This document shows, in pieces, positions 6,465-63,768 of a stretch of DNA of 64,000 nucleotides. The position numbers were made by a program, and so were the translations under genes. Below the pieces are notes generated by a model. It ran no database searches and was not told the DNA's origin. It saw only the letters and a list, made by a program, of their open reading frames with translations. The DNA lies in contig CAVWEH010000004.1 in assembly GCA_963753975.1 (NCBI GenBank), forward strand, positions 288,001-352,000, in the 5' to 3' direction. Source of the stretch: an uncultured delta proteobacterium (GTDB taxonomy: Bacteria; Desulfobacterota; Syntrophia; Syntrophales; Smithellaceae). Each line of letters begins with the position of its first letter. Position 1 is the first letter of the stretch.

Positions 6465-6965
6465 CTATTTCCAAAAATAACCGCCGATAATGTAAACGGC
6501 CGTTAACATGACAACATGCACAAACCAAAAGCCCATATTAGGAAAGCGGAAAAACCTGCCGCTGCGCATCGGAGCGTCGGGCTGGTTTACTGCAAGCTCC
6601 AGTTCAAAAAGGGCTTTGCCGACGGCAAATTTTCCCCAAAGCAGCACGATATCAGCCAAAAGCGTTCCCAAAAGAATTGTCTGTAGAGTCCACGCTTGCG
6701 GGGGGTTTTCAATTGTAAAATGAGTCATAGCGATTGTACCGATGATTACCGTTATGCCATTGAGAAGATAAGCAAAGGAGATTGTTGATCGAAAAATAAA
6801 TAGGACAGGAATGACGATCACGCTGATAAACCCGGCCACGAGGGGTATGAAATTTTCCGGGTCTTTGGCGAAGGGATGTATCCGCAGATGAAGGAGCCAG
6901 CCACCCACGGCTAAAAAAAAGATCGCCAAAATCAATACTAACCGTAGATTGTCTTTTTTCTTCAT
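6465..6965 (-). CDS. Hypothetical membrane protein with His-containing TM helices
   Basis: 166 aa, about 5 TM segments, GAGGTG RBS. Confidence 0.75.
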   Translation of the reverse strand: MKKKDNLRLVLILAIFFLAVGGWLLHLRIHPFAKDPENFIPLVAGFISVIVIPVLFIFRSTISFAYLLNGITVIIGTIAMTHFTIENPPQAWTLQTILLGTLLADIVLLWGKFAVGKALFELELAVNQPDAPMRSGRFFRFPNMGFWFVHVVMLTAVYIIGGYFWK

Positions 6966-6994
6966 AGTTCACCTCACTTTATTTATTTTACGGA

Positions 6995-7030
6995 CGTGTG
7001 ACCTCGTGTGACCTTCAGGTTATTAGGTTA
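6995..7030 (+). repeat. 18-nt hairpin micro-element nested inside another copy of itself
   Basis: CGTGTGACCT[CGTGTGACCTTCAGGTTA]TTAGGTTA. Confidence 0.85.
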
Positions 7031-7075
7031 TGCACTCGATAAATAGGGACAGCCTATTTTTAAAATACATATTTA

Positions 7076-7303
7076 ATCACGGGTAAAATACCCTCCGCTG
7101 TGCGGGATAATCACGGGCATTTGCAATGCCCTCCGCTTATGCGGGATCAATTCAACCTGCAAATATTGCCGCACTGTGCTGGCAATATTTGAGTTTCATT
7201 GATTCGACCTGCAAGCTTCAGCGCACTCTGTTTCTGAAACTTGGGTCTCATTACAATTTACCAATTCCGCTGCACTTTGCTTTCGGAATTGGAGTTTCAC
7301 GAA
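7076..7303 (+). repeat. Modular hairpin repeat, locus A (head-head-H1a-H2-H3)
   Basis: Near-identical to reverse complement of 11093-11243; modules shared with 51625-51850, 54331-54611, 63634-63768. Confidence 0.92.
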
Positions 7304-7390
7304 AAACAACGTGCTTAAATATACTCACAATTTTCTTTATTTCAATTCTTTTTTACATTAGTCAACGGCAAAATAACCGGATCCCCCCGA

Positions 7391-7428
7391 CGTAGCCCGG
7401 CATGCGCTGGGCAGGCTACCGGGCTACG
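7391..7428. repeat. GTAG-initiated inverted repeat (REP-like)
   Basis: CGTAGCCCGG-N18-CCGGGCTACG perfect 10-bp IR. Confidence 0.5.
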
Positions 7429-7466
7429 CTGCCGAGTAAACTTCTGCCGGACCGAAATGACATTTT

Positions 7467-8048
7467 TTATTTTTTAAAAAAGCCTTCCATAGCTATTTCG
7501 GAAATGCTCTTTCTTGCCGATGGAAATTCACGTTCCTGCTGGTAGGAAGGCAAATCTTCTTTCTTACCATGTTTGCCCACAGCAATCATTGCTTCCACCT
7601 GATAATCAGCGGGAATACGCAAAACTTCTTTGGCCTTATCATAATCGAATCCCTGCATGCCGTGCACAACGAGCCCCGCAAGCGAGCCTTGCAGAGCAAA
7701 GTTTTCCCAGGCGGCGCCGGTATCGTAGGAGTGCGTCCGGGAAGGTTTGCCGTTATCAAATGTCGTTTTGGAAATGACAACTATCAGCACGGCGGCGTTT
7801 TTCGCCCATTCCTGATTGCCCTCGGCCAGCAGATTGAAGAAAGTCATCCAGTTCTTTGTATTGCGGCGGCCGTAGATAAATCGCCAGGGCTGATTATTGT
7901 TGGAGGAAGGCGCCCAATGCGCCGCTTCAAAAAGAGAAAGTAATGCGGCTTCATCAATTTCTTCGCTGGACATCGCCCGCGGTGACCACCGGTTTAAAAA
8001 TAGTTCGTTGACATTCTGCTCGGGTTTTCTAAAATCTCTGATGTTCAT
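7467..8048 (-). CDS. Nitroreductase family protein
   Basis: RWSPRAM, APSSNNNQPWRF, DTGAAWEN, GMQGFD. Confidence 0.92.
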   Translation of the reverse strand: MNIRDFRKPEQNVNELFLNRWSPRAMSSEEIDEAALLSLFEAAHWAPSSNNNQPWRFIYGRRNTKNWMTFFNLLAEGNQEWAKNAAVLIVVISKTTFDNGKPSRTHSYDTGAAWENFALQGSLAGLVVHGMQGFDYDKAKEVLRIPADYQVEAMIAVGKHGKKEDLPSYQQEREFPSARKSISEIAMEGFFKK

Positions 8049-8066
8049 AAAGCACCTCCTCTTTAA

Positions 8067-9800
8067 TTATTGTTTGTTCAGCAAATAAGCCTTCATCTCC
8101 TTCAGATTCAGACAATTAAGACAATCGCCCTTGGAAAGCCAACCTTTGCGGGCTATCTTAATTCCAAAACTGATGTCGTGCAATCCCGCTTTCTGATGAG
8201 CGTCGGGGTTGATCGCAATCTTTACGCCCTTCTTTTTGGCATGAATGCAATTGCGCCAATCCAAATCCAGACGGTGCGGATTGGCATTGAGCTCGAGAGC
8301 CTTGCCGAACTGGGCCGCTGCCTCAATAATTTCCATAATGTTTAGCGCATAAGGTTCCCGCGACAAAAGCAACCTGCCGGTCGGATGGGCGAGCATGGTA
8401 GTATATTTATTCTGCAGAGCTTTCTTAATGCGGCCGGTCATCTCCGCAGCGGTCATGTTAAAATTGGAATGGATGGCGGCAATCACAAAATCAAATTTCG
8501 CCATAATTTCTTCATCGTAATCCAACCTGCCGTCCGGCAAAATATCCGCTTCGGTTCCTTTAAATATATAAAAAGGCGCATGCTTATTGTTGAGATTATC
8601 AATAAGCTCATGCTGCCTTTGAATATCCTCCGCTTTCAAGCCTCCGGCATAATAAGCCGAACGGCTGTGATCGCTGATACCGATATATTTTAATCCCATT
8701 TTTTTTGCCGCCAGCACGATACTCTCCAGTGTATCCGTGCCATCACTGAAATTGGTGTGGATATGAAAAAGCCCCTGTACATCTTTTTCTTCGACAAGTT
8801 TTGGCAATGTGTTTTTTTCTGCCGCTTCAATTTCGCCCATATTTTCGCGCAATTCCGGAGGAATAAATTGCAGCCCCAGTGCGGAAAAAATTTCTTCCTC
8901 ACTGCGGCAAACAATGTTTTTCTCTCCTCGGAAAAGCCCATATTCGTTCATTTTGATGCCCATGTCCTTCGCTCTGCCCCGCATGGCGGTGTTATGCTCT
9001 TTGCTGCCGGTAAAATGATGCAGCGCATAAGGAAACTCATCTTTTGTTACGATGCGCAAATCGGCATTGACTCCCGATTTCAAATTTACGCTGACTTTCG
9101 TTTCACCGCCGGCAATAACAGAAGCAACTTCATCCAAATTGGCGAATGCTCGGGCCAGTTTTTCGGGATGCGCCGAACTGGCCAGGATATCAATGTCCTT
9201 GACAGTTTCGTTGCCGCGGCGCAATGAACCGGCAACGCTGACGGCAAAGACATCTTTATTTTCCCTGAGAAACTTAAGCAGCGCTTCAGCCTGGCCTTCG
9301 ACTTCCGCATAAAGCCTTCTTTCTTTATAAACCTTCAGCTTTTCGATACCGGCCAAAATATTTTCCTGCGACTTTTTTCCAAATCCCTTAAGTTCCACAA
9401 GACGGTTTTCATGGCAGGCATATTCCAGTTCACCGATAGTTTTTATTCCCAATCGTTCATAAAGAGCATGAATTTTTTTCGGTCCCAGGCCGCTTATCTT
9501 CAACATTTCCAGATGACCGGGAGGAATGGACGTTTTGAGGTTTTCGTAATATTCCAATTGTCCGGTAGTCATCAACTCCACAATTTTTTTGCCGATAGCC
9601 TCTCCTACACCGTCGATTTCGTAAATTTTTCCCTCCTGCACCAATTCACTAAGATCAGATTCTACTTTTTCCAAATTGCGGGCGGCATTCGTGTAGGCAC
9701 GGGATTTAAAGGGATTTTCTCCGGTCAATTCCAAAAGAACTGCAATTTCTTCGAGAATTTTGATGACTGTTTCTTTGGTGACCATTTTTTTCACAAACAT
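8067..9800 (-). CDS. polX: DNA polymerase X with PHP 3'-5' exonuclease domain
   Basis: GSLRR...KDIDIL, ADLR, HFTGSKEHN, HIHTNFSDG, SDHS, DAH. Confidence 0.95.
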   Translation of the reverse strand: MFVKKMVTKETVIKILEEIAVLLELTGENPFKSRAYTNAARNLEKVESDLSELVQEGKIYEIDGVGEAIGKKIVELMTTGQLEYYENLKTSIPPGHLEMLKISGLGPKKIHALYERLGIKTIGELEYACHENRLVELKGFGKKSQENILAGIEKLKVYKERRLYAEVEGQAEALLKFLRENKDVFAVSVAGSLRRGNETVKDIDILASSAHPEKLARAFANLDEVASVIAGGETKVSVNLKSGVNADLRIVTKDEFPYALHHFTGSKEHNTAMRGRAKDMGIKMNEYGLFRGEKNIVCRSEEEIFSALGLQFIPPELRENMGEIEAAEKNTLPKLVEEKDVQGLFHIHTNFSDGTDTLESIVLAAKKMGLKYIGISDHSRSAYYAGGLKAEDIQRQHELIDNLNNKHAPFYIFKGTEADILPDGRLDYDEEIMAKFDFVIAAIHSNFNMTAAEMTGRIKKALQNKYTTMLAHPTGRLLLSREPYALNIMEIIEAAAQFGKALELNANPHRLDLDWRNCIHAKKKGVKIAINPDAHQKAGLHDISFGIKIARKGWLSKGDCLNCLNLKEMKAYLLNKQ

Positions 9801-9886
9801 TTAACCTCTTATCTCATCTTTTATATATCTTCGAAGTATTCCGGCAAAAGCCGGCTTTCTTGTGATACTTTTTGTTGAGGCATTGC

Positions 9887-9915
9887 TTGACATTCTACTT
9901 TGAACAATATATAAG
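9887..9915 (+). promoter_or_regulatory. Sigma70-like promoter of tRNA-Glu
   Basis: TTGACA-N17-TATAAG followed by GC-rich discriminator. Confidence 0.65.
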
Positions 9916-9947
9916 GCGCGCACCTTACATATAAATTATTTCCCAGC

Positions 9948-10023
9948 GTCCCCATCGTCTAGAGGCCTAGGACACGGGCCTTTCACGCCTGTAACCGGGG
10001 TTCGACTCCCCATGGGGACGCCA
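9948..10023 (+). tRNA. tRNA-Glu(TTC)
   Basis: GTCCCCA...TGGGGAC acceptor, CGGGC-CTTTCAC-GCCTG anticodon arm, GGTTCGACTCC, encoded CCA. Confidence 0.97.
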
Positions 10024-10029
10024 ATATTT

Positions 10030-10068
10030 AAAAAAAAGGGCAAACTATATTCGGTTTGCCCTTTTTTG
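10030..10068. terminator. Bidirectional rho-independent terminator
   Basis: A-tract GGGCAAAC...GTTTGCCC T-tract between convergent genes. Confidence 0.8.
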
Positions 10069-10080
10069 TTTATCTGAATC

Positions 10081-10938
10081 TTATTTCTCTTTTTTCTTAG
10101 TTGTGCTCTTTTTCGGCTTTGTTTTGGCCTCCGCGACCGTTTTCTTTTTTAGGTTTTTATCAGCGGTAGCTGCCGTCTTTGTTTTCAGTTTAGGTTTTGG
10201 TGCGGCCTTTGCCTTTGTTGTCTTTGTCGTTTTTGGTTTTGGCTTTGCTTTTGGTACCTCGGCCTTTGGCTTCCCCTTAGGTTTCGGCTCAGGCTTCTTG
10301 GGTTTTGCTGCCGCAACTTTCGACTCTTTTTTAGCTCTCGGTTCAGCCTTTACTTTCGCTGGCGCCGGTTGAGAAACGGCAACGGGAGCAACCGGTTTTT
10401 CCCCAATCTTCGGTTCCGCCGGTACTGATATAATTTCCGGCAGTGGTACCGGGGCTTCCGGTTTTTCTTCAGGTTTTATTTCCACCGGCTTCGGTACAGA
10501 CACTGGTTCCGGCACTGGTTGGAATTTCGGTACGGCTATAGGTTCAGGTGCCGGCGCTTCTAATATCACCGGCTTGGGCTCCGGCGCTGGCCGCTTCGGC
10601 GGTTTGGGCGGCTTCGGCTCTTCCTGCATAGGCGCTGGTTTGGGCTTGGGCGCCTCTTTAGGTTCAGCTTTCGGTTTTTTCTCTTTTTTCTTCTTCGGTT
10701 CAGCTAACTTTTGTGCTTTTGCCTGTGCTAATTCCTGGACGCGTTGGACAAATTTCTCCAGCGCGGCAATTCTTATATTAGTTTGCCTGATTTTTGCCTT
10801 AAGATTTTTAACAAGGGGGTCACTTTGGGCTTTTTCTTTGCTGATACCCTTTTGGGCTAATTTCTGCAATCGTAAATCCAGTTTTTTCTCCAGGATTCGG
10901 CGCTGCTCAAGTCTGACATTCTTACTTTTCGACGGCAT
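10081..10938 (-). CDS. Hypothetical protein: basic helical N-terminus, Pro/Glu linker, Lys/Ala-rich histone-H1-like tail
   Basis: GGAGG RBS before MPSKSK; low-complexity PEPKP and KPKAK segments. Confidence 0.75.
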   Translation of the reverse strand: MPSKSKNVRLEQRRILEKKLDLRLQKLAQKGISKEKAQSDPLVKNLKAKIRQTNIRIAALEKFVQRVQELAQAKAQKLAEPKKKKEKKPKAEPKEAPKPKPAPMQEEPKPPKPPKRPAPEPKPVILEAPAPEPIAVPKFQPVPEPVSVPKPVEIKPEEKPEAPVPLPEIISVPAEPKIGEKPVAPVAVSQPAPAKVKAEPRAKKESKVAAAKPKKPEPKPKGKPKAEVPKAKPKPKTTKTTKAKAAPKPKLKTKTAATADKNLKKKTVAEAKTKPKKSTTKKKEK

Positions 10939-11092
10939 TTTTTCCTCCACATGCATTTTAAAATATTTAAACTTAGCGCTTAAATAACAATATTTTCGCT
11001 TGAAAGCTACAAAAATATTTTTACTGTTTAGTGGAGCCTCCTCCGGTCGCAGATGACCTTTAGGTTAAAGGAGCCGGAGGCTTCCTAAAATA

Positions 11093-11252
11093 GTGAGACC
11101 CAAGCTTCAGAAACAAAGTGCGCTGAAGCTTGCAGGTCGAATCAATGAAACTCAAATATTGCCAGCACAGTGCGGCAATATTTGCAGGTTGAATTGATCC
11201 CGCATAAGCGGAGGACATTGCAAATGCCCGTGATTATCCCGCGGAGCAGAGG
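11093..11252 (-). repeat. Modular hairpin repeat, locus B (partial head-head-H1a-H2)
   Basis: Reverse complement nearly identical to 7102-7250; micro-element at 11047-11067 lies beside it. Confidence 0.92.
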
Positions 11253-11367
11253 ACAACGCGACCTCCCGCGGCTGGAGCCGAGGGATTCCAAGTCACGGGA
11301 TTTGATGTTAGGTTTTCCTAATTATTTTTCCCGCCACCAGTTGACCACATAAACTACCATCTTTTTT

Positions 11368-12531
11368 TCATCTTGTCTCCAATAAACCGATGACTTCAAC
11401 ATGCTCGGTTTGGGGAAACATGTCCACAGGTAAAAGACTAAGCAAGGCATAACCATGCTCATTTAAATATTTAACGTCCCGCGCCTGTGTCGCCGGATTG
11501 CAGGAAACGTAAATAACCTTTTGCGGCTTTAAATCCGCGATTGCCTTCAGTACTGATTCGCTGCAGCCGCTGCGGGGTGGATCAAGTACAATCAAATCGT
11601 TTTCATTTCTGGAAGATAAAAATTCCCCCGATAAAATATTTTCGACTTTTCCCCGGATAAACCTAACATTTTTCACATTCGCATTGGCGGCATTTACTTG
11701 CGCATATTTTACTGATTTTTCGCTTATTTCAATACCGACAACACGCTGGCTATAAGGCGCCAGAAAAATCGAAAAAAGGCCGCTACCGCAATAGGCATCA
11801 ATTAAAGTATTTATTTCGTTAGACATCGCCAGACGGCAAACCTCATCCACTAATTGATTTGTCAAATACAGATTTGCCTGAAAAAATCCTCTCCGGGGCA
11901 CCAAAAACTTTTTCCCCTTAACCGTCCTCATGACCGCATCTTTCTGATCGGCAAGAGGATCTGACCAAATTGTTAAACGGTCATCATTATTGTGCTGAGT
12001 CTGTATATTCTCCCTCCGGGCACGTAATTTTTCGTTTATTGTTTCTTCCATAATTTCACAGCGTTCTATATCCACAATTTCACGGCCGGAAACATCTAAG
12101 AAGCCGATTTTAAAACCATTGCTTGTTCTTAAAGAATGAAACTCGGCCTTTCCCCGATAATGATAGACTTTGGAAGCCGCTTTAATAACTGTAACCGGCG
12201 GTGTCGCAATTTTGCCGATTTTTCGAAATATTTCTTCCACCTGCTTTTTTTTAATCTCCGGCTGGTATTCATAATTTACGTGCTGGTAGCAACAACCACC
12301 GCAGTTCTCATAATAGCGGCACAGAGGACTTACTCGCAACGGCGACGGTTTGACTATCTGTAATATTTTGCCGCGGGCAAATTTCTTTTTGAGCTGAACA
12401 ATTTCAACTTCCAGTTCATCTCCCGGAGCGGCAAAGGGAACGAATACCACAAAATTGTCGACGCGTCCGACTCCTTCGCCGCCAAATGCTACTGATTCAA
12501 TTTTTATTACAACGCGATCTTTGATCCGCAT
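11368..12531 (-). CDS. TRAM-domain RNA m5U methyltransferase (RlmD/TrmA family)
   Basis: TRAM N-terminus, CxxxxxCGGC, FFQAN, DAYCGSG, DPPRSG, YVSCNP, DMFPQTEHVE. Confidence 0.92.
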   Translation of the reverse strand: MRIKDRVVIKIESVAFGGEGVGRVDNFVVFVPFAAPGDELEVEIVQLKKKFARGKILQIVKPSPLRVSPLCRYYENCGGCCYQHVNYEYQPEIKKKQVEEIFRKIGKIATPPVTVIKAASKVYHYRGKAEFHSLRTSNGFKIGFLDVSGREIVDIERCEIMEETINEKLRARRENIQTQHNNDDRLTIWSDPLADQKDAVMRTVKGKKFLVPRRGFFQANLYLTNQLVDEVCRLAMSNEINTLIDAYCGSGLFSIFLAPYSQRVVGIEISEKSVKYAQVNAANANVKNVRFIRGKVENILSGEFLSSRNENDLIVLDPPRSGCSESVLKAIADLKPQKVIYVSCNPATQARDVKYLNEHGYALLSLLPVDMFPQTEHVEVIGLLETR

Positions 12532-12681
12532 AATTCTCCAGTTTAGACATTTATAAAACTTTCCTGTTCAGCGAGAGCATATAGTACATGAGAAATAATA
12601 GTCAATACGAGCAATATTTTCTTTACAATGGGAATTAATGTTGTTAATTAAATCCGCAACGAAAATTATAAGGGATTAATA

Positions 12682-13533
12682 ATGTCCACGGAAAGAAAAT
12701 CCATCCTCTGCCCCAACTGCCGCAAGCTCATCAGCTCGGACGAGCCTTCCTGCCCTTATTGCGGACTTTTACGGCCCGGTTTACACAATACTGCAGGGAT
12801 TATCAGAAATATTTTCTTTGCTTTCAACCCGGTAATGACCATTATCTACACGAACATTGCTTTTTATTTTCTGGCATTGCTTTTAAATCCGCAGGGAATT
12901 CTTTCCGGTGGCAGCCCTTTTAATTTCCTCTCTCCTTCGGGTCAAAGCCTCTTTCTATTGGGAGCAACCGGAACAGTTCCCGTATTTGAATTTCACCGCT
13001 TTTGGACTCTAATTGCCGCTTCCTTTCTGCATGGAGGAATTCTGCATATTGGTTTCAATATGATGGCTTTATACCAATTGGGACCTTTCGTTCTACAAAT
13101 ATTCGGCTTTCACCGTTTTTTGATCATATATATTCTGTCCGGAATCGTCGGTTTTGCCGCCTCTTTGCTGTTTGGCGTTACCTTTACCATCGGCGCATCG
13201 GCCAGCATCTGCGGACTAATCGGCGCGATTTTGTATTATGGAAAAAGCCGGGGCGGTTATTACGGACAGGCTATATATAAACAAGCAGTGGGTTGGATTA
13301 TCGCACTAATAGTCTTTGGAGTTATCGTCAGCGGCATAAACAACTGGGCTCACGGCGGCGGAGTTCTTTGCGGAATACTTTTGGCCTTTCTAATGGGATA
13401 CAATGAAAAAAAACAGGAAACGGCGGGACATAAACTTTTGGCCTATGCGTGCATCTTAATTACGGCCGGTATTTTAATCTGGTCGGCTGTTTATTCCCTA
13501 ATTTATGTTATCGCGCCTTCAATCCTTTCATAA
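12682..13533 (+). CDS. Rhomboid intramembrane serine protease with N-terminal zinc ribbon
   Basis: CPNC...CPYC, FLHGGILHIGFNM, GASA, NWAHGGG. Confidence 0.9.
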   Translation: MSTERKSILCPNCRKLISSDEPSCPYCGLLRPGLHNTAGIIRNIFFAFNPVMTIIYTNIAFYFLALLLNPQGILSGGSPFNFLSPSGQSLFLLGATGTVPVFEFHRFWTLIAASFLHGGILHIGFNMMALYQLGPFVLQIFGFHRFLIIYILSGIVGFAASLLFGVTFTIGASASICGLIGAILYYGKSRGGYYGQAIYKQAVGWIIALIVFGVIVSGINNWAHGGGVLCGILLAFLMGYNEKKQETAGHKLLAYACILITAGILIWSAVYSLIYVIAPSILS

Positions 13534-13562
13534 ATTAAAATGAAATTTTAATCTGTAAATTC

Positions 13563-14022
13563 ATGACAGAAAAACCCGAAGAAGAAAATAAAAGATCTAT
13601 CCTGGCATTTGCCTGCGCCTCTTTCTTAAATGATTTTGGCTCCGACATGATTTATCCGGTTTGGCCATTGTTTGTTACTTCCGTTATGGGCGCCAACATG
13701 GCCGTGCCGGGATTGATTGACGGATTGGATGAAGCTTTCGTTTCCATCTCTAAAGCCATATCCGGCTATCTTTCCGACAGGATCAGGAAAAGGAAGTTTT
13801 TTATAGTGTTTCCGGGCCGCCGGCCTGGGTGTATTTCAAATGGCCATCGGCATTTGCGCCCTGCCGGCTTCATTGGTTGCCGGCTTTCTCCAGAATAATA
13901 TTAACATGCAGGCCCCTTTTTATTTATCTCTTGTCTTGTCTCTAATCGCTTGTTTCCTGCTTTTATTTGTAAAAGAGGATAGTGGCAACAACGGGCAAAA
14001 AAGCCTGCTTAATTTTTCCTGA
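13563..14022 (+). pseudogene. MFS transporter remnant (N- and C-terminal ends only)
   Basis: SFLNDFGSDMIYPVWPLF...GYLSDRIRKRK is joined out of frame to FQMAIGICALPASLVAGF...APFY. Confidence 0.75.
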
Positions 14023-15202
14023 CCAGTAGAAGCCCCTTAAGATAGTGGCCTTCGGGATGTCCCAGCAAAACCGGATGATCCGGCCCTGCCGCCAATCTTG
14101 TTAGCAATTGTAAATCGGCGTCGGCATCGCGCGCAGCGCCAAGAACGATCTTGGAAAAAAGATCTTCTTCTATAAAGTTGGAGCAGGAAAACGTCGCCAG
14201 GATTCCTCCTCGGGCAAGATGCTTGATTGCTTGTAAATTGATTTCCTTATAGCCGCGCGCTGCTTTGGCCACATCCTTTTTGGCTTGAGCAAATGCGGGA
14301 GGATCAAGGATGATCATATCGAAACATTCCTGCGTATTGCGCAAATAATCAAAGACATCGGCTTCTACTACCGGATGGTCTTCCGTGGAAAACCAATTGA
14401 GCTGCAGATTCCTTTTTGCCGTGATACAGGCAGGCTTGGATATATCCAAAGAAACAACTCGTTTGGCCCCGCCTTGGGCGCAATAAACGGAAAAAGCTCC
14501 GGTGTAAGAAAAACAGTTTAATATGCTGGCATCACGGCTCAGCGCGCCTATCTTTTCTCTGTTGATCCGCTGGTCCAGAAAAAAACCGGTTTTTTGGCCA
14601 CGGGCAAAGTCCACCTCAAATTTCAACCCGTTTTCCATTATCTCCACAATACCGGCTTCATTATCTCCGAAAACAAAACCGATCCTGATTTCCAGCCCCT
14701 CCAATGAACGCGACCGGCCTTCGCTTTTTTCATAAATCCGCGCCGGTTTTAATTGGGAAATGAGAGCATCTAAAATATGGTTTTTTTGTTTTTCCATTCC
14801 GGCGGTCGCAATGGATAGCATCAGACTCGAACCATAAACATCAACTATCAATCCCGGAAAACCATCACCTTCGGCATTGATGAGGCGATAAGCGTTTGTT
14901 TGTTCATTGATAATTATTTGCCGTAATTTGCATGCCACATGCAGGCGGTTTTGCCAAAAATTTGAGGTGATTTTTCCTTCACAGTTTCTCGTCAAGATAC
15001 GTAAAGCTATGTCTGTTCGGGGATTAAAAAATCCTAAAGCCAGGGGTTTACCGCCCGAATCTTTGACCAGAACAATATCGCCCGCATCGGGTTTTCCTTT
15101 AATTGCATCAATAGCGCCGGAAAATACCCATGGATGCCCGCGCAAGAGCGCCGCTTCACGTCCCTTTTTCAAGATCATTTCCGGATAAATCATCTTAGAC
15201 AT
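14009..15202 (-). CDS. rlmI: 23S rRNA m5C1962 methyltransferase family (RlmI-like)
   Basis: GHPWVFS PUA domain, GQKTGFFLDQR, FSYTG, LDPPAF, FSCS. Confidence 0.85.
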   Translation of the reverse strand: MSKMIYPEMILKKGREAALLRGHPWVFSGAIDAIKGKPDAGDIVLVKDSGGKPLALGFFNPRTDIALRILTRNCEGKITSNFWQNRLHVACKLRQIIINEQTNAYRLINAEGDGFPGLIVDVYGSSLMLSIATAGMEKQKNHILDALISQLKPARIYEKSEGRSRSLEGLEIRIGFVFGDNEAGIVEIMENGLKFEVDFARGQKTGFFLDQRINREKIGALSRDASILNCFSYTGAFSVYCAQGGAKRVVSLDISKPACITAKRNLQLNWFSTEDHPVVEADVFDYLRNTQECFDMIILDPPAFAQAKKDVAKAARGYKEINLQAIKHLARGGILATFSCSNFIEEDLFSKIVLGAARDADADLQLLTRLAAGPDHPVLLGHPEGHYLKGLLLVRKN

Positions 15203-15306
15203 TAAGTTTTAGGCTATCTTTTCTAACTTGAAATTGCAAGGCACTTTGTATTATAGCATTCAGTAATTACATTTATTCGCTACAAAACCGCAAGGGGTTT
15301 GGAAAA

Positions 15307-16383
15307 ATGCATGCTGTCATCATGGCCGGCGGCAGAGGCACTCGCTTCTGGCCCCGTAGCAGGGAGAAAAAGCCCAAGCATCTATTAGATATAGTTAGCA
15401 ATAGAACTATAATCCAGGAAACCGTTGACCGCGTCAAAGAACTGATTGCCCCGCAAAATATCTTGGTGGTGACAGGCAAAAAGCACGCGCGTGAGCTGAT
15501 CAAGCAGCTTCCGGAAATTCCTTCAAAAAATATCATTATTGAACCGGAAGGTAAAAATACCGCACCCTGCGTCGGACTCGCGGCTCTCTACATACAAAAA
15601 AAAGTCGGCGATGATGTCATGGTTGTGCTGCCTTCCGACCACGCCATTGGTGATGCCCATGTATATACAGAGGTCATTGCTGCAGCGGCACAATTTGCCG
15701 CCAACGAAAACGCGCTGGCAACAATCGGCATAAAACCATCCGGTATTCAAACAGGCTTCGGCTACATTGAATATGCTGATTCTTTTCAGCATATAGGGAA
15801 TCAGGAAGTTTTCCGGGTAAAATCCATACGTGAAAAACCGGATTTCACGCAAGCACAGAAATTTGTTCAAAGCGGCAATTTTTATTGGAACAGCGGCATG
15901 TTTATCTGGAAAGCCTCGACCATCATAGAAGAAATCGCCCGCTTTTTGCCGGACTTATATTCAGGTCTGATGAAAATAAAAAATGTCCTTGGCACTCCAA
16001 GAGAAGCGACTGTCATCCGTAAAGTTTATAAAAAACTGACTTCGATTTCTATCGATTACGGCGTTATGGAAAAGGCGAACAACGTTTTTATGCTGAGAGG
16101 AGATTTCGGCTGGAGCGATGTGGGCAGTTGGGATGCGCTTTGGGAAATATCGCCTAAAGATAACAAAGGTAATACAGTAACCGGAGGCCGCAATGTACTT
16201 TTTGAAGATACGGAGGGATCTCTTGTTTATAGCCCGCAAAAACTTGTCGCTCTTGTAGGAGTAAAGGATTTAATCGTTGTAGAAACAAAAAATGCCTTAC
16301 TGATTTGCAAAAAAGGCCGTTCCCAGGATGTAAAAAAAATAGTCGAAACTCTGGAAGCGGCAAAAATGAAGAAATACCTTTAG
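15307..16383 (+). CDS. manC: Mannose-1-phosphate guanylyltransferase
   Basis: MAGGRGTRFWPRSR, EPEGKNTAP, LPSDH, REKPD, WNSGMF, SIDYGVME, WSDVGSW. Confidence 0.92.
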   Translation: MHAVIMAGGRGTRFWPRSREKKPKHLLDIVSNRTIIQETVDRVKELIAPQNILVVTGKKHARELIKQLPEIPSKNIIIEPEGKNTAPCVGLAALYIQKKVGDDVMVVLPSDHAIGDAHVYTEVIAAAAQFAANENALATIGIKPSGIQTGFGYIEYADSFQHIGNQEVFRVKSIREKPDFTQAQKFVQSGNFYWNSGMFIWKASTIIEEIARFLPDLYSGLMKIKNVLGTPREATVIRKVYKKLTSISIDYGVMEKANNVFMLRGDFGWSDVGSWDALWEISPKDNKGNTVTGGRNVLFEDTEGSLVYSPQKLVALVGVKDLIVVETKNALLICKKGRSQDVKKIVETLEAAKMKKYL

Positions 16384-16385
16384 AG

Positions 16386-16682
16386 TTACTTTAAATAAAC
16401 CGGGTCGCCGTTGACATCAAACTTCCCTTTTTTAAGTTCTCCGATAATAATATTGAGGGTAGTCATTTCGTCATCAAAGGTAATAATCAACAGATCATGT
16501 CCTTTATTCTCATGTTTCTTCACACCGTTAATTTTTTTCAAGATAGAACCTATCCTGGCATTGGAGTTTCAGGCAGAACATCCGGGCATTGTCAGCTGCA
16601 CAATTCTTTCCTCAGCGATAGCGACACTGATAAACGCTGATAAGAAAATGAGTGTTAAGAATACACTTAATAATTTTTTCAT
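16386..16682 (-). CDS. Exported HMA-like selenoprotein candidate, 98 aa (MPGCSAU)
   Basis: GAGGTGG RBS, signal peptide, in-frame TGA at 16569-16571 as codon 38 in CxxU, frame stays open to TAA 16386; SECIS-like hairpin; selC in window. Confidence 0.85.
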
Positions 16683-16814
16683 ATTCCACCTCTGTTTTTT
16701 TATGGCCTTATAATAACTCCAAGCCCCTCAAGAAGCAAATATAATTTCCAATTGACACTTAAAAGTTTATTTGTGATAAAAATCATTATATTCATATTAT
16801 AGAAAGCAAAACCA

Positions 16815-17408
16815 ATGCCTATCTCTTTATCCGAACAACTTATTTTAGCTTCGGCTTCGCCGCGACGGCGGGAGCTGCTGCGGTCGGTGGGTTTGAAGTT
16901 CAAAACCATTCCCGCTCATGTCGATGAAGATTACAGCGAGGGAGAAAGCCCTAAGCAGCACGTCCGCAGGCTGGCTGGCGAAAAGGCTCAACTTATTGCC
17001 CGAAAATATCCGCGGGCGTGGGTGCTGGGAGCGGATACAATTGTTGTCATTGACGGACTTATTTTAGGCAAGCCAAAAAATAAAACACAGGCAAAAGAAA
17101 TGTTGAAAAAACTAAGCGGCCGCGAGCATAAAGTATTTACCGGTTTTACTGTCACTCAAGTCACCTCTAAAGTAAGTCGTTCTGATATCGTTCAATCGAC
17201 GGTCAAATTTAAAAAGATCAGCGCCGCAGAATTGGATTGGTATATAGCCTGCGATGAACCATACGACAAGGCCGGTGGTTATGCAGTGCAGGGGAAAGGG
17301 GCTTATTTCATAAAATCAATTCGCGGCTCTTACACCAATGTGATTGGCCTGCCGCTTGGCGAAGTTTTGGAAACATTAAAAAAATTAGAAGTGATCAGTT
17401 TTGGCTAG
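16815..17408 (+). CDS. maf: Maf nucleoside triphosphate pyrophosphatase
   Basis: ILASASPRRRELL, GADTIV, GKP, DKAGGYAVQG, NVIGLP. Confidence 0.93.
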   Translation: MPISLSEQLILASASPRRRELLRSVGLKFKTIPAHVDEDYSEGESPKQHVRRLAGEKAQLIARKYPRAWVLGADTIVVIDGLILGKPKNKTQAKEMLKKLSGREHKVFTGFTVTQVTSKVSRSDIVQSTVKFKKISAAELDWYIACDEPYDKAGGYAVQGKGAYFIKSIRGSYTNVIGLPLGEVLETLKKLEVISFG

Positions 17409-17413
17409 GTTCA

Positions 17414-18106
17414 ATGGAAATAAATATTCCCGACAATATAAATAACATAAAACAAAAGATAATTTCTGCGGCTGTTAAGTGCGGCCGCGATCCTGATTCC
17501 GTCAAACTTATGGCGGTTACTAAAACCGTTCCCGCCGAATATATCATTAAGGCCATTAACGCCGGTATCACCATGCTTGGCGAAAATTATGTTCAGGAGG
17601 CCAAAGGTAAAATCGCTGTTATCGGCGGTAGTTCCCAATGGCATATGATCGGCCATCTGCAGACTAACAAAGCAAAATATGCCGTCAAATTGTTTGACTA
17701 TGTTCATTCCGTTGACCGCCTCGAACTCGCACAGGAACTGGATCGAAGAGCAGGACTGACCGGTTGCAAATTGAATATTCTCGTTGAAGTCAACGTCAGC
17801 GGCGAAAAATCAAAGAATGGCATTCCGGCGGATGATGCCCCAACCTTAATTAAGCAAATAGCCGGCCTCACAAATCTGGCTGTGCGCGGATTAATGACTA
17901 TGGCTCCGTATTCCGATAATCCTGAAAATGCCCGTCCTCACTTTTTCGCTTTGAGAAATCTTCGTGATAATATAGCCCGTCAACAAATTCCGGGAATTCA
18001 AATGGAAGAACTTTCCATGGGCATGACCGATGATTTCGAAGTAGCCATTGAAGAAGGAGCAACGATTGTCCGCATTGGCCGGGCAATATTCGGCCAGCGA
18101 AAATAA
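17414..18106 (+). CDS. yggS: PLP homeostasis protein YggS
   Basis: AVTKT, GENYVQE, WHMIGHLQTNK, LSMGM, VRIGRAIFG. Confidence 0.95.
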   Translation: MEINIPDNINNIKQKIISAAVKCGRDPDSVKLMAVTKTVPAEYIIKAINAGITMLGENYVQEAKGKIAVIGGSSQWHMIGHLQTNKAKYAVKLFDYVHSVDRLELAQELDRRAGLTGCKLNILVEVNVSGEKSKNGIPADDAPTLIKQIAGLTNLAVRGLMTMAPYSDNPENARPHFFALRNLRDNIARQQIPGIQMEELSMGMTDDFEVAIEEGATIVRIGRAIFGQRK

Positions 18107-18207
18107 TCTTACTGTCGAGGCACAAAAGCTTTCACGGAAGAAACATTGTAACAATGTTATCCATCGTTTTTTCTGATAACAATCAGTAAACGGAGAAAGT
18201 TTTTTAA

Positions 18208-19365
18208 TTACTTTTCGGAATTCTCCGCTGGAATGAATGCCGCTTCACCGGCGGTTTTGTATATTTTTAGGCAGGTGTCAACAACCATCGAATCGTAAAG
18301 GATTCTTTTGTATTTGACTATTTCTTCAATGGCGGAATCAACACCTAGTGCCGGCCGGTACGGCCGATGGGAAGCCATAGCATCAATAACATCAGCAATC
18401 CCTATAATGCGCGCCGCGAGCAATATCTCTTCTCCCTTAAGCCCCTGTGGATAACCTGAACCGTTCATCCTTTCATGGTGTTGCAAAATAATTTGCGCTA
18501 TCGGATAGGGAAACTCAATGGTTTTAAGAATATCATAGGCAACCCTACAATGTGTTTTGATTATATCCCTTTCCAAATCAGTTAAATGCCCCGGCTTGGT
18601 TAATATTTCCGACGGCACGGATATTTTTCCAATATCATGAAGAGCTGCGGCAATTCTAATGGCCTCAATTTGTTCCTTAGTCATCGCCATTTCTTTCGCT
18701 ATTTTACATGATATTATGGCCACTGCAGCCTCATGACCGGAGGTATAAGGATCACGGGTTTCCACGATCTTAGACATCGTTTTCACTGTGCCATCCAAAA
18801 TCATTTGTGAGTTTTCATAACTTGCCTTTAGTTCTTCGGCTTTGACCAATAGGTCACTTGTCTTCTCTTTAACTTTATCTTCAAGGGTTTTGTTCAATTC
18901 CATCAGATCGTTGTTTTGCTTTTTGGTTAATTCCACCAATCGTTTATTTTCCATCACCAGTTCCGTTTTGGAAAGAGATTCTTTAATATGAACCAGTAGT
19001 TCCTCCTCACGCCATGGTTTGGTAAAATAAAGCTGGATCCCTCCTTTATTGATGGCGTCAATTATGGCGTCGGTGTCGGCGTAACCGGTCAATAGTATTC
19101 GTACGGCATCCGGAAAAATATCCTTGGCCTTGGAAAAAAATTGCACGCCATTCATAACCGGCATTCTTTGATCGGAAATAATAAGGGAGAAAGGTTTTTT
19201 CGCTTCCCGCAGCTTATTCAGGCCTTCCATTCCATCGCGAGCCGTGTGAATTTCGTAATCTTCGTCGGCCAGAATACGCTTAAAAGCATTAAGAATAGAT
19301 TCTTCATCATCGACAATTAATATTGAATGCCTATGTTTTAAAGGTGCGATCGGCGCTAAAGTCAT
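18208..19365 (-). CDS. Response regulator with HD-GYP phosphodiesterase domain
   Basis: REC (VDDE, SDQRMP, TKPW) plus RDPYTSGH, LHDIGK, HHERMNGSGYP; start taken at ATG 19365. Confidence 0.92.
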   Translation of the reverse strand: MTLAPIAPLKHRHSILIVDDEESILNAFKRILADEDYEIHTARDGMEGLNKLREAKKPFSLIISDQRMPVMNGVQFFSKAKDIFPDAVRILLTGYADTDAIIDAINKGGIQLYFTKPWREEELLVHIKESLSKTELVMENKRLVELTKKQNNDLMELNKTLEDKVKEKTSDLLVKAEELKASYENSQMILDGTVKTMSKIVETRDPYTSGHEAAVAIISCKIAKEMAMTKEQIEAIRIAAALHDIGKISVPSEILTKPGHLTDLERDIIKTHCRVAYDILKTIEFPYPIAQIILQHHERMNGSGYPQGLKGEEILLAARIIGIADVIDAMASHRPYRPALGVDSAIEEIVKYKRILYDSMVVDTCLKIYKTAGEAAFIPAENSEK

Positions 19366-19533
19366 CCTATTATCCTTCCGTGCCAAACTTTTTTGCAGAT
19401 TTATTCGATTTTAACATATATCGAAATCTATATACTCTCATACTGTAATATATTGGACCTTTTAGAAGATTATGTCAACATTTTGCTGCGACTGAAAATT
19501 CACAGTTTCAGCATTATCGCCAGAATCTCATTA

Positions 19534-19969
19534 ACCACGGGTATCTTACGATACCCTCCGTTTATGGCGGGATCAATTCCACTTGCGCTTCAAACTTCGC
19601 TTCACTCGTTTTCATCGAGTATCATTGACCACGGGTATCTTACGATACCCTCCGTTTATGGCGGGATCAATTCCACTTGCGCTTCAAACTTCGCTTCACT
19701 CGTTTTCATCGAGTATCATTGACCACGGGTATCTTACGATACCCTCCGTTTATGGCGGGATCAATTCCACTTGCGCTTCAAACTTCGCTTCACTCGTTTT
19801 CATCGAGTGTCATTGACCACGGGTATCTTACGATACCCTCCGTTTATGGCGGGATCAATTCCACTTGCGCTTCAAACTTCGCTTCACTCGTTTTCATCGA
19901 GTGTCATTGACCACGGGTATCTTACGATACCCTCCGTTTGTGGCGGGATCAATTCCACTTGCGCTTCAA
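19534..19969 (+). repeat. 94-bp tandem array, about 4.6 units (locus C: head-H1b repeated)
   Basis: Units start at 19534, 19628, 19722, 19816, 19910; only two variant positions seen. Confidence 0.97.
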
Positions 19970-19995
19970 TTTGAGTCTCTTTAAAAAAAATACGT

Positions 19996-22809
19996 TCAGG
20001 CGGAAATAATTTTCCTCAAAAATCTGCCCGTCGCTGATTTTTCTTCCCCGGCCACTTTTTCCACTGTACCGGACGCAATAATTTGACCGCCACCCGGCCC
20101 TCCTTCCGGCCCAAGGTCGATAATATAATCGGCGCATTTAATCACATCCAGATTATGTTCGATCACGACTATGGTATTACCCATATCTGCGAGGCGTTTT
20201 AAAACATCCAGCAATTTTTGAATATCTGCAAAATGCAACCCGATTGTCGGTTCATCCAGAATATAAAGGGTGTTGCTGTTGATTCTCTTGCCCAACTCCC
20301 GGGCCAGTTTTATCCTTTGTGCTTCGCCGCCGGAAAGAGTGGTCGCCGACTGCCCCAAATGAATATAGCCCAGCCCGACATCGTAGAGCAATTGCAGGTG
20401 CGATTTAATCGGTGAAATGTTGGAAAAAAAGATTAATGCCTGGCTCACCGTCATGTCTAAAACCTCGGCAATGCTCTTATCTTTATATTTGATATCCAGT
20501 GTGTCTTGATTAAAACGTTTGCCGTGGCAGACATCGCAAGTAACATAAACATCAGGCAGAAAATGCATTTCAATTTTTATTAATCCGTTGCCTTCACACG
20601 CTTCGCAGCGGCCGCCTTTCACATTGAAGCTGAACCGTCCCGGTTTATAGCCACGCACCCGAGATTCGGCAAGATTGGTAAATAGGTCGCGGATAAAAGA
20701 AAAAATTCCGGTATAAGTCACCGGATTGGATCGCGGCGTTCGCCCTATCGGCTGTTGGTTAATCATTATGACCCGTTCAATATCCCCCAAATCCGTAACT
20801 TTTCTGATTTTGCCCATTGCCCCGCGGTGCTGATTCAGGCGGCGCGCCAGTACTTTGTAAAGCGTTTCCACAACCATTGTGCTTTTGCCGGAGCCCGATA
20901 CCCCGGTTACTGCCGTAAACACTCCTACCGGTATTTTAATATCGATATTCTGGAGATTGTTTTCAGTGGCTCCCTCTAAAATAATTTGCCGGCCGGCAAT
21001 GGAGCGCCTTTTTGGCGGCAAAGCTATGGATTCCTTGCCGGATAAAAATCTACCGGTGAGTGATTCATCGCTTTTTAAAATTTCCTCCGGAGGACCTTGA
21101 AAGACCACTTTTCCGCCGTTGTCTCCCGCACCCGGCCCCATATCTACAATGTGATCACAGGCTATCATCATTTCGGCGTCGTGCTCGACAACCAGCACGG
21201 TGTTACCCATATCGCGCAACTTTTTCAAAGTATCTATCAGTCGCAGATTATCCCTTTGATGCAGTCCGACCGTCGGCTCGTCCAATACATACAAAACGCC
21301 CATCAATCCGGAGCCGATTTGCGTAGCGAGCCTAATACGCTGGCTTTCCCCTCCTGATAAGGACAATGTTGATCTATCCAGGCTTAAATAATCCATGCCC
21401 ACATTGAGCAAAAACCGTAGACGATTTTTGATTTCCTTGAGAATTCTCTCGGTTATGATTTTTTCCTGTGCCGTCAGTGCCAATTGTTCGAAAAAGTTAA
21501 AACATTCGCGAATAGACATCTGGCAGAGTTCATAAATATTTTTTCCCCCCACAGTTACGGCGAGGCTTTCCTTTTTCAAACGAGCGCCGTGACATGTCTC
21601 ACATGCGCTCAAATCAATGTAGCGCGCCAGATCATTGCGTATTACGCTTGACGTCGTGTCCCGCCAGCGACGCTCCAATTGCTTGATCACCCCCTCAAAG
21701 GGCTGATGAGCAAAGTACCTTCTGTCCGGGCGGTCATGATAAAATTTAATCCTTTCTGTTCCCGATCCATAGAGCAGAACTTTTTGAATTTTTTCCGGCA
21801 ATTTATCAAACGGAGTATTGATATCAAATCCGTAATGAGTAGAGAGAGCATCCAGGACATTATGATAGTAAAGAGAAGTTCTTCCCGCCCAAGGCGCAAT
21901 GGCCCCTTCCCGCAAAGACAACCCTGAATCCGGCACAACCAGATCCAGCGCAAAATGCATTCGGGAGCCCAGACCATTGCAGTCGGGGCAAGCTCCGTAG
22001 GGACTGTTGAAGGAAAACATACGGGGCGTAAGTTCAGGGATACTTATCCCACAATCCGGACAAGCATATTTTTCACTGAAAAGTATTTCTTCGCCGGAAG
22101 CGGGAACTATGCACACCAGTCCTTCCGCCCGGCTTACGGCGATTTCCAAAGAATCACGCAGTCTTTTTCTTACGCCCTCCTTCAATACCAGGCGGTCGAC
22201 AATCAAATCGATGTCATGGCGTTTATTCTTAGTCAGAAGAATATCTTCCGCCAAATCCCTAATTTCTCCATCAATCCGGACGCGCGCAAATCCTTCCTTC
22301 TGAAGCTTTTTTAATTCTTTCTGAAATTCACCTTTTTTACCGCGAACCAGCGGGGCCATAATGCTGAAGCGTGTATTGGCGGGAAGCGAGAGAACACTTT
22401 CTACGATACTGTCGATTGTTTGCGATTTGATTTCGCGCCCGCAGTTATAACAATGGCACTGACCAATTCCGGCATAAAGAAGACGGAAGTAGTCATAAAT
22501 TTCGGTGACCGTACCGACAGTGGAACGAGGATTGTGGCTGGCTGTGCGCTGTTCTATGGCTATAGCCGGCGATAAGCCTTCGATAGATTCCACATCCGGC
22601 TTATCCATCTGTCCGATAAACTGGCGGGCATAAGTGGAAAGCGACTCCACATAACGCCTTTGACCTTCAGCATAGATCGTATCAAAAGCCAGCGACGATT
22701 TACCGGAGCCACTCACACCGGTAATGACAACAAGCTTATCGCGGGGTATATCTAAACTAATATTCTTTAAATTGTGTTGGGAAGCGCCTTTGATTTTTAT
22801 TGCATCCAT
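19996..22809 (-). CDS. uvrA: Excinuclease ABC subunit A
   Basis: Two ABC modules ([13 protein letters not shown]), zinc fingers, [11 protein letters not shown]. Confidence 0.98.
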
Positions 22810-29942: not shown

Positions 29943-30040
29943 GGAAGTGCCCAGGTCACTGGTGGGCCTCCTGGACTTCAAATCCAGTGTGGGGCGCTAG
30001 AACCGTCCCGGGTGGGTTCGATTCCCATGCACTTCCGCCA
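29943..30040 (+). tRNA. selC: tRNA-Sec(TCA)
   Basis: GGAAGTGC/GCACTTCC 8-bp acceptor, CTGGA-CTTCAAA-TCCAG anticodon arm, long variable arm, GCCA end. Confidence 0.96.
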
Positions 30041-51578: not shown

Positions 51579-51624
51579 GATTAGTTAAATGATCGCAAAT
51601 ATTTTCTTGATTATAAAGGTTGAG

Positions 51625-51850
51625 TCACGGGTATTATACCCCCTCCGCTTAGCGGGATCAATTCAACTGACGCTTCAAACTTCGTTTCATTCGTTTTTAG
51701 CGAGTTTCATTGATTCGACCTGCAAGCTTCAGTCGTAGATGACCTTCAGGTTATGCACTCTGTTTCCGAAACTTGGGTCTCATTACAACTTACCAATTCC
51801 GACTTGTGACCTTTAGGTCATACGCTTTGCTTTCGGAATTGGAGGTTCAC
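51625..51850 (+). repeat. Modular hairpin repeat, locus D (head-H1b-H2-H3, two micro-inserts)
   Basis: H1b matches tandem-array unit; H2/H3 match locus A plus inserts at 51733-51753 and 51803-51820. Confidence 0.92.
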
Positions 51851-51920
51851 AAATAAAATTAATTTTAAAGCCGCGGCCTTAAACAAAAAGACCGCGGCCT
51901 CAAGTTTTTAACTGGTAATC

Positions 51921-54173: not shown

Positions 54174-54330
54174 AAATTTTTATCTGCTTTATAGCGAGAA
54201 AAGCCCTCTATATCATTACTACATGAGAATTTAACTTGACGCTTAAGAACATTTTCCTTATCTTATCATTACAGCAAAATTACTTCTCAGGAATCACAGG
54301 TATGAATAAAGCAAACTTTGGAAACCGATT

Positions 54331-54611
54331 CGCAAGCTTGCTGCGGGGTATTATACCCTCCGCTACGCGGGATATCCCTGCATCCTTTGGCTGCAGGATG
54401 AATTCAGCTAACAAATATTACCGTGCTGCACTTGTAATATTTGAGTTTCATTCATTCGACCTGCAAGCTTCAGCATGAGTGACCTCTTGTGCCCTTCAGG
54501 TTATTAGGTTATGCACTATGTTTCTGAAGCTTGGGTCTCATTACAAGTTACCAATTCCGACTTGTGACCTTTAGGTTACGCGCTTCGCTTTCAGAGTTGG
54601 AGTTTCACGAA
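54331..54611 (+). repeat. Modular hairpin repeat, locus E (head-H1a'-H2-H3 with nested inserts)
   Basis: Compensatory changes relative to locus A; inserts at 54474-54511 and 54561-54578. Confidence 0.9.
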
Positions 54612-63633: not shown

Positions 63634-63768
63634 ATCACGGGTCTAAACCCCCAAAGCAAGCTGCGGCGGTATTATACCCTCCGCTTCGCGGGATTGTTCA
63701 ACTTACCAATTCCGACGTGCTGCGCCCTGCATCCGCCGGGCTTTGCTCTCGGAATTGGAGTTTCACGA
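63634..63768 (+). repeat. Modular hairpin repeat, locus F (interrupted head-H3)
   Basis: GGTATTATACCCTCCGCTTCGCGGGAT joined directly to TTCAACTTACCAATTCCGA...TCGGAATTGGAGTTTCACG. Confidence 0.88.

Follow-up and report, generated by a model that had tools for sequence, protein, structure and literature searches.

The window, a 64,000-nucleotide stretch from an uncultured member of the Smithellaceae (contig CAVWEH010000004.1, positions 288,001 to 352,000), carries housekeeping genes and, as the earlier note had stated, no candidate enzyme. A tRNA-Sec gene lies at 29943–30036. Six loci in the window, A to F, belong to a family of small mobile DNA elements without genes that occurs in Smithella-type bacteria (Table 1). 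All six, together with the stems quoted for them in the earlier note, are present in the sequence, but some of the boundaries given there were off; E begins at 54293 rather than 54331, and D has also been redrawn.

Anatomy of the six loci

The informative strand is, for A and C to F, opposite to that of the first reading. On this strand the hairpin tips are purine-N-A triloops, and the TC/TC-type internal loop described previously, which is indeed present, is a tandem GA/GA. Each long hairpin consists of 3–4 paired bases, the tandem GA/GA, a 4-bp stem, a 2-nt bulge on the 3′ arm and a long stem. It is followed 3′ by an invariant ATC and then by either a foot hairpin or a cloverleaf head ending in RT. 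The unit is a long hairpin with its splint (the internal segment described below) and a foot or head; single-unit elements measure 80–230 nt. The plan of F, the minimal canonical form, is repeated in 94 single-hairpin elements.

Table 1. Elements and component parts at the six loci of the window.
Feature	Position	Strand	Basis or remark
A: H3, 5′ long hairpin of the first-inserted canonical element	7254..7302	-	Element 5′ end 7302, after T tract
A: H2, second long hairpin, and first splint bases	7202..7253	-	Contigs of three public runs (see text)
A: complete 92-nt inner element (H1a, splint, head) within resident splint	7110..7201	-	Removal restores resident splint; circular fold
A: remaining resident splint and resident head	7076..7109	-	Element 3′ end 7076
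B: H2 unit (11091-11142), inner H1a and head (11143-11234), resident foot remainder (11235-11255)	11091..11255	+	
Host of B: separate gene-less element, IS200/IS605-like ends (PATE-like)	11030..11304	-	Absent together with B in G011 (L233)
C: four full 94-nt units (long hairpin and head) and truncated fifth, in tandem	19534..19975	-	
D: H3 (small insert), H2 (small insert), H1b, head	51624..51852	-	
E: H3, H2, H1, extra foot, long head	54293..54610	-	
F: minimal canonical element (H3, splint, head), 135 nt	63634..63768	-	
Passenger hairpin S, about 18 nt, inside long hairpin	54564..54581	+	Absent from same element in G013
Further copies of S	7008, 11053, 51739, 51806, 54489		

Structure is retained while sequence changes, as had been claimed, with outer-stem pairing far above that of shuffles. 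Across 333 hairpins, position 2 of the outer stem is paired in 296 (shuffle mean 156, maximum 183) and position 3 in 253 (shuffle mean 134, maximum 157). Outer stems covary between roughly seven subtypes of copies, and the paired counts are therefore not counts of independent events. The tip is a purine-N-A triloop, a stable type of DNA mini-hairpin, in 287 of 326 cases. Wobbles in the long stem are more often G.T (91) than A.C (47), and those in the 4-bp stem are mostly A.C (65 versus 13 G.T), which points to the other strand. Rfam returned no match at the loci, either for the whole window at gathering scores or for 6900–20100 at E≤5, in keeping with the earlier note, which did not recognise a named family.

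At locus A, the 5′ end at 7302 is identical to that of ten clean empty/filled pairs (see below). Contigs from three public runs join 7108 to 7254 via 4 letters, corresponding to a form without H2 and H1a; their sides are short and they probably stem from other copies. Beside A, at 7038–7060, a long-hairpin fragment is fused to a short motif that resembles RAYT-type gene ends such as those at L028. B is 96% identical to A over 162 nt, and an uninterrupted splint continues at 11142 in 45 and 10 contigs of two public runs. B had been correctly assigned to the family, but the second, unrelated gene-less element around it had been missed. A 738-nt public-run contig skips 11031–11304, the host element. 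Its ends read as IS200/IS605-like when the sequence is set against IS605 end motifs. This second family, which carries guide-like tetranucleotides, occurs also at G000 C2:116577, C5:37050, C5:44214, C4:51123 and C1:67425; it shows lineage-specific insertions though the genome is without Y1, and hosts both the main family and the passenger hairpin. Locus C, noted before as having several units, is better described as tandem amplification of one 94-nt unit, the orthologous site in G011 (L234) holding a single one.

The passenger hairpin S has been added independently within loops. It enters the loops of several repeat families, and also itself, and folds better on the other strand. S resembles the tips of repeats flanking a Y1 gene at L035.

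Distribution, ends and target

A BLAST search with the six loci yielded 139 clusters in the 2.43-Mb source genome, which gave 140 loci when merged with a structure scan; orientation is uniform inside every one (0/140 mixed). The long-hairpin descriptor (RT-GA, 4 bp, 7 bp, loop, 2-nt bulge) matched 152 times in the genome at a score of at least 10, compared with 4 matches in the locally shuffled and 5 in the reversed genome. A 14-nt motif is found in 91 of 116 family genomes, with 1 to 214 matches per genome (reversed control at most 1), and its copy number ranges from 0 to 214 even among close kin. Among 24 genomes of the same family, 17 matched locus A, whereas none of 16 genomes from the order's other families did.

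The family extends further afield. Several Bacteroidales carry full elements; they are rare in the Bacteroidota sample, where 3 of 401 genomes were matched, one of them, without the stem, by chance. At loci L173, L177, L180, L182 and L184 of one Bacteroidales genome, G044, an element lies inside a larger attC-like repeat, and both have been copied together several times. Three strict patterns had no match among phage sequences. Two looser patterns gave 28 phage loci: 14 from one pattern are chance or coding matches, and 9 from the other are real stand-alone units lying between phage genes.

Elements were compared with their orthologous sites, a check the earlier note had proposed, over 1.6 Mb of G011 and G013, which are about 88–90% identical to the source genome. 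The source genome's own loci are empty in 47 of 84 comparisons, as are 23 of 57 in the reverse direction. Thirty filtered junction pairs, classed by eye, comprise 10 clean insertions at TTTRT^Y, which show no duplication, 4 approximate ones, 4 that belong to the second gene-less family and 12 that are unclear or have flanking loss; small losses occur at many junctions. Flank profiles agree on the ends: TTT-R-T borders the left end in 174 copies, and 103 of 132 right ends have T next to GTGRT. Left and right purines are unlike in 21 of the 82 copies that could be scored, which means that the target is not duplicated; a hint of duplication at L054 and L110 was rejected on this ground. A metagenome copy has split a Y1 gene at TTTAT^T, with the insertion point precisely between conserved codons. 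The ends of the element are thus fixed, and insertion is 3′ of T at the degenerate target TTTRT^Y, without duplication.

Terminators are not preferred, with 13 of 220 sites associated with one as against 23 of 600 control sites (p=0.25). A group IIC intron-like, terminator-targeted origin was accordingly rejected; moreover, the sole RT gene of the source genome has no element beside it.

These data also bear on whether the repeats might instead be a structured RNA or a regulatory element, such as a terminator or stability hairpin, kept by the host. Their setting is compatible with such a role, being intergenic and often near stop codons and tRNA ends. Orientation relative to genes is, however, even (52 against, 50 with), the triloops are of DNA type, Rfam has no counterpart, more than half of the orthologous comparisons find the site empty and one copy breaks a gene. 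The RNA reading raised in the earlier note is therefore highly improbable.

Insertion into the splint, and how the elements may move

Circular folds of F, of the inner element of A (7110–7201) and of a C unit have both element ends paired with an internal splint, the first half of which pairs with the 5′ end and the second half (ATC) with the 3′ end. The splint is thereby predicted to close the element into a nicked dumbbell. Of 171 elements, 135 have a partner for ATC, which is GAT in 107 and GGT in 28; since ATC is invariant, this pairing has no covariation signal.

New units insert whole into the splint of a resident copy, which explains the ordered arrays. Among 36 hairpin-to-hairpin junctions, 12 keep only one foot and 24 have a second foot. 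A script scored 16 of these 24 as restoring the resident splint, although one proved spurious when read. The cut follows the incoming splint, with 15 of the 24 as predicted: eight of nine junctions of three-base types leave GAATT^ATCC and 7 of 15 of four-base types leave GAAT^TATCC. Another 2 keep the register, E departs from it by one base and 5 give no information. Several second-foot junctions are orthologues, so the set represents about ten independent events. The resident remainder is kept in only 3 of 35 insertions behind H3. The splint does not predict which base comes next to the 3′ end where units stand alone (read by eye: T 17, A 10, G 7, C 1).

Growth in place is seen between close relatives, in which D and E are empty, minimal or grown. 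The D site is empty in G013 (L225) and has H3 and head alone in G011 (L237); the E site is empty in G011 (L237) and has H3 and head alone in G013 (L225). Hence whole units have been gained in place at D and E, as the presence and absence of entire modules had suggested, and both the absence of genes and the fixed module boundaries are borne out by element sequences, empty/filled pairs and array comparisons. The cassette view of the earlier note survives in its modularity; what is added, however, is not a free hairpin joined to a head but a complete small element entering the resident splint.

Our preferred reading, held tentatively at a probability of roughly 0.45, is that an HUH enzyme acting in trans moves an ssDNA element similar to PATEs and REPINs. 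Elements would act as folded single strands and be non-autonomous. Excision would release a closed ssDNA circle, and since 82 nt is too short for a double-stranded circle, this would be a folded single strand in the form of a closed dumbbell. Re-insertion may proceed by one-strand exchange 3′ of T, the target RT replacing the 3′ end on the splint. Arrays form because the splint region is itself a target; they then often lose repeated heads, and tandem units are amplified. The catalyst, the weakest step of this scheme, might be an HUH enzyme (an IS200/IS605-type Y1, RAYT-like or rolling-circle Rep) lent by transient elements.

Two observations lead us to prefer an HUH enzyme. IS200-type left ends in the order (L021, L033) share the same target and the GA/GA mini-stem, with a C-rich hairpin, and the PATE-like host element of B moved in the lineage although the genome now has no Y1. 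Absence of duplication and a TTTAT target are traits of IS200/IS605 elements (bioRxiv 2023.03.14.532601). Against this stands the lack of a clear replication-strand bias, which for an IS200/IS605 PATE would be towards the lagging-strand template: 73 of 133 copies lie one way, with canonical copies at 26/40 (p=0.08) and others at 32/66, replichores being taken from the GC skew of draft contigs.

The TTTAT target and lack of duplication would also suit ordinary PATEs, that is, deletion derivatives of an IS200-type element that obey the IS608 guide rule at both ends. In IS608, guide positions 1–2 pair as set out in PMC5934647. The guide-like AACA just before the foot, set against TTAT, fits the crossed-guide rule at the canonical left end. 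Pairing of guide position 4 is also part of IS608 recognition. The rule fails for the AAT, TAAT and CAAT types, however, and no set of guide, hairpin and motif was found at the right end, where GTGRT lies in a stem with internal ATC, in contrast to the right ends of L021 and L048 and in place of a TCAC-type motif preceded by a separate guide and hairpin. No gene-bearing parent was found among the 122 metagenome matches listed or at 123 genome loci, and strand bias is not clear. An ordinary PATE is for these reasons very unlikely.

A bolder form of the scheme is possible but doubtful: that self-splinting ssDNA dumbbells form a new minimal class of mobile DNA, with their own Watson–Crick guide for both closure and target, a borrowed enzyme and an order of arrival recorded in nested arrays. 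The enzyme borrowed could then be a rolling-circle Rep, a tyrosine recombinase or a host ligase and nuclease, none yet tied to transposition.

Searches for the enzyme covered the source genome, its relatives and the phages. The enzyme acting in trans that the earlier note proposed is putative, none having been found in the searches. In the 95%-complete source genome, Y1, Y2, TnpB zinc ribbon, IS110 and RAYT searches had no match, and Y1 is lacking from G002, G005, G010 and G011. Of 30 Y1 loci among those listed for relatives, one touches an element and none has cognate flanks; in the Bacteroidales holders, 0 of 22 Y1 loci among those listed are flanked by an element. The Y1 locus of relatives that touches an element is the RAYT of L028, which the element abuts on one side only and which has ends of its own. 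None of 30 Y2 loci carries element ends, and Y2 is absent from the high-copy congeners. No Y1 gene was found in five phage records that hold units, and an IS200 TnpA query found no relative among phages. Clustering of neighbouring genes (1742 ORFs, drawn from the surroundings of 140 own loci and 171 foreign ones) returned only orthologous housekeeping genes; no gene recurs beside the elements. Comparison of gene content with the element-free G003 (about 0.7 of 2.3 Mb compared) leaves 570 candidates.

No cognate flanks were found at 22 GIY-YIG loci. A GIY-YIG gene beside an element was rejected as the cognate enzyme, being a fixed orthologous locus that is element-empty in two relatives. Small GIY-YIG genes form a mobile clade of their own (L268, L271, L273, L278, L279, L291, L293), with palindromic flanks unrelated to the elements. 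A small GIY-YIG gene at G000 C5:719298-720020 (L003; also L272 and L292) lies between a tRNA-Ser 5′-half copy and the intact tRNA; the half copy has a double hairpin in the anticodon arm, and beyond the next tRNA lies a 3′-half copy that bears these hairpins too.

A rolling-circle Rep of the HUH type (PF23343) is a lead only, and is partly associated with the elements. Its gene (C2:542628-543707) lies with a tyrosine integrase in an island at tRNA-Met (G000 C2:536671-545200). Each of its four intact close homologues comes from a genome with 139–191 motif hits, and the Rep is present in 7 of 29 genomes with at least 30 motif hits versus 4 of 87 others (Fisher p=0.005, kin not being independent). 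It is absent from 22 of the 29 high-copy genomes and from 5/5 Bacteroidota holders. No shared origin sequence was found, and a likeness of the island to the circle junction was rejected because it lies in codon-like DNA. A conserved peptide-like stretch lies 3′ of the Rep gene in this island.

The main rival to an HUH enzyme is a tyrosine recombinase from outside the IntI group, either a phage integrase or XerC/XerD, that would recombine the dumbbell with a short target in the manner of integron cassettes and CTX phage. It is the main rival because the cut in the circular folds lies in duplex, not in a single strand. The parts (5′ end, internal loop, stem bulged on the 3′ arm, splint, cargo, 3′ end) are arranged as on a cassette bottom strand, and the cut-to-bulge distance of 9–10 nt is similar to that of attC. 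Enzymes of this class are resident (XerC/XerD, a phage-type integrase, an IntI-like remnant), units occur in phages and no strand bias would be needed. The core is nevertheless RT^Y rather than the AAC/GTT of attC. XerC, flanked on both sides by elements, was rejected as a candidate, being a housekeeping copy beside hslV, and the IntI is only a C-terminal remnant. Within the genus, IntI (TIGR02249) is missing from all 7 high-copy genomes but present in 6 of the 8 low-copy ones; in the low-copy genus g5, 31 of 47 genomes have it. We regard this route as unlikely. The remnant is at G000 C4:123072-123203, and xerD, at G000 C2:601-602 kb, seems to be broken across two reading frames of the assembly. 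In the 15 genomes of genus g1, intact IntI and high element copy number are mutually exclusive, a pattern that phylogeny alone may account for.

The lack of a cognate gene in any search, and the small losses at many junctions, are what would be expected if no dedicated transposase existed. Host flap or structure-specific nucleases would then trim the folded strand where it is nicked, DNA ligase would seal it, a splinted nick being a ligase substrate, and repair or template switching would re-insert it at T-rich ssDNA gaps and into elements of its own kind. Precise ends and a defined target, kept across two phyla, are hard to explain in this way, as is a copy number varying so widely among close kin, and we consider host enzymes alone quite unlikely.

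Relation to known elements and significance

Under the preferred HUH reading, the closest relatives in behaviour are PATEs and SMR-A repeats, gene-less IS200/IS605 derivatives of Haloquadratum (PMC3119063) and G. stearothermophilus (bioRxiv 2023.03.14.532601). They too are gene-less, lack terminal inverted repeats and target duplications and have hairpins near their ends; the target is TTTAT, as for an ISGst2-type TAM, and strain-specific insertions occur despite a broken or missing transposase, with elements piling into each other. The elements here differ in having one internal Watson–Crick splint for both ends and a 3′ GTGRT in a stem rather than a TTCAC-type end. They also insert into their own splint to form ordered arrays, have no parent IS that was found and show no clear strand bias.

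REP/BIME and REPIN sequences with TnpA-REP (RAYT) are likewise high-copy intergenic mosaics with local amplification, and PMC3333891, PMC3116915 and PMC6006769 describe strand transfer able to assemble tandem units and cuts on both sides of one recognition hairpin. Here, by contrast, GTAG/GGAG feet are absent from long hairpins and heads and present only with some passenger hairpins, orientation is single throughout rather than in inverted pairs, the cut is RT^Y and no RAYT is flanked by the repeats. Only the passenger hairpin looks REP-like. The analogy to folded ssDNA substrates drawn in the earlier note is thus sound for PATE/REPIN-like behaviour but breaks down over the right end, the search for a parent IS or cognate RAYT, and the absence of GTAG feet and of inverted pairs.

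In an integron attC cassette the ends pair with an internal segment in the circle, an internal loop is followed by a 3′-arm bulge, tips are of GCGAAGC type, and arrays are ordered and formed without duplication. Splinted ends, loop then bulge, tips, ordered arrays and lack of duplication are all shared. The present elements, however, have no gene and no AAC/GTT core, a tandem GA in place of a 5–6-nt spacer and a 2-nt bulge. Whereas the attC crossover is G|TT, theirs is RT^Y, outside the hairpin, and the first pair of the 4-bp stem varies. The genomes of the genus that are richest in copies lack IntI, which together with the RT^Y cut tells against the attC parallel drawn in the earlier note.

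Two further systems are more remote. The small dispersed repeats of Nostoc (Elhai 2008, cited in PMC3116915) are said to be tiny (21–27 nt), structured and of unknown mobility; at that size they compare at most with the passenger hairpin, not with units of 80–230 nt. IS91/ISCR elements differ in that no Y2 transposase with matching oriIS/terIS ends was found here (0/30 Y2 loci).

The hairpin-element family is real, mobile and undescribed in the literature searched, which was largely open-access main text; atypical structures beside Y1 subclass 2.6 and class 3 (PMC6006769) may bear on this. It belongs with gene-less ssDNA elements. Ends, target, splint and nesting register together provide a testable rule for repeats that reach about 200 copies per genome in syntrophic Smithellaceae. 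The family crosses into Bacteroidales and phages, and moves where the usual transposases are not found. The assembly and spread of REP-like mosaics have long lacked an explanation, and here the intermediates can be read in three-state orthologous series. If the splint selects the target, this would be a very small DNA-guided insertion system, and if the dumbbell view is true, an altered splint would re-programme the insertion site.
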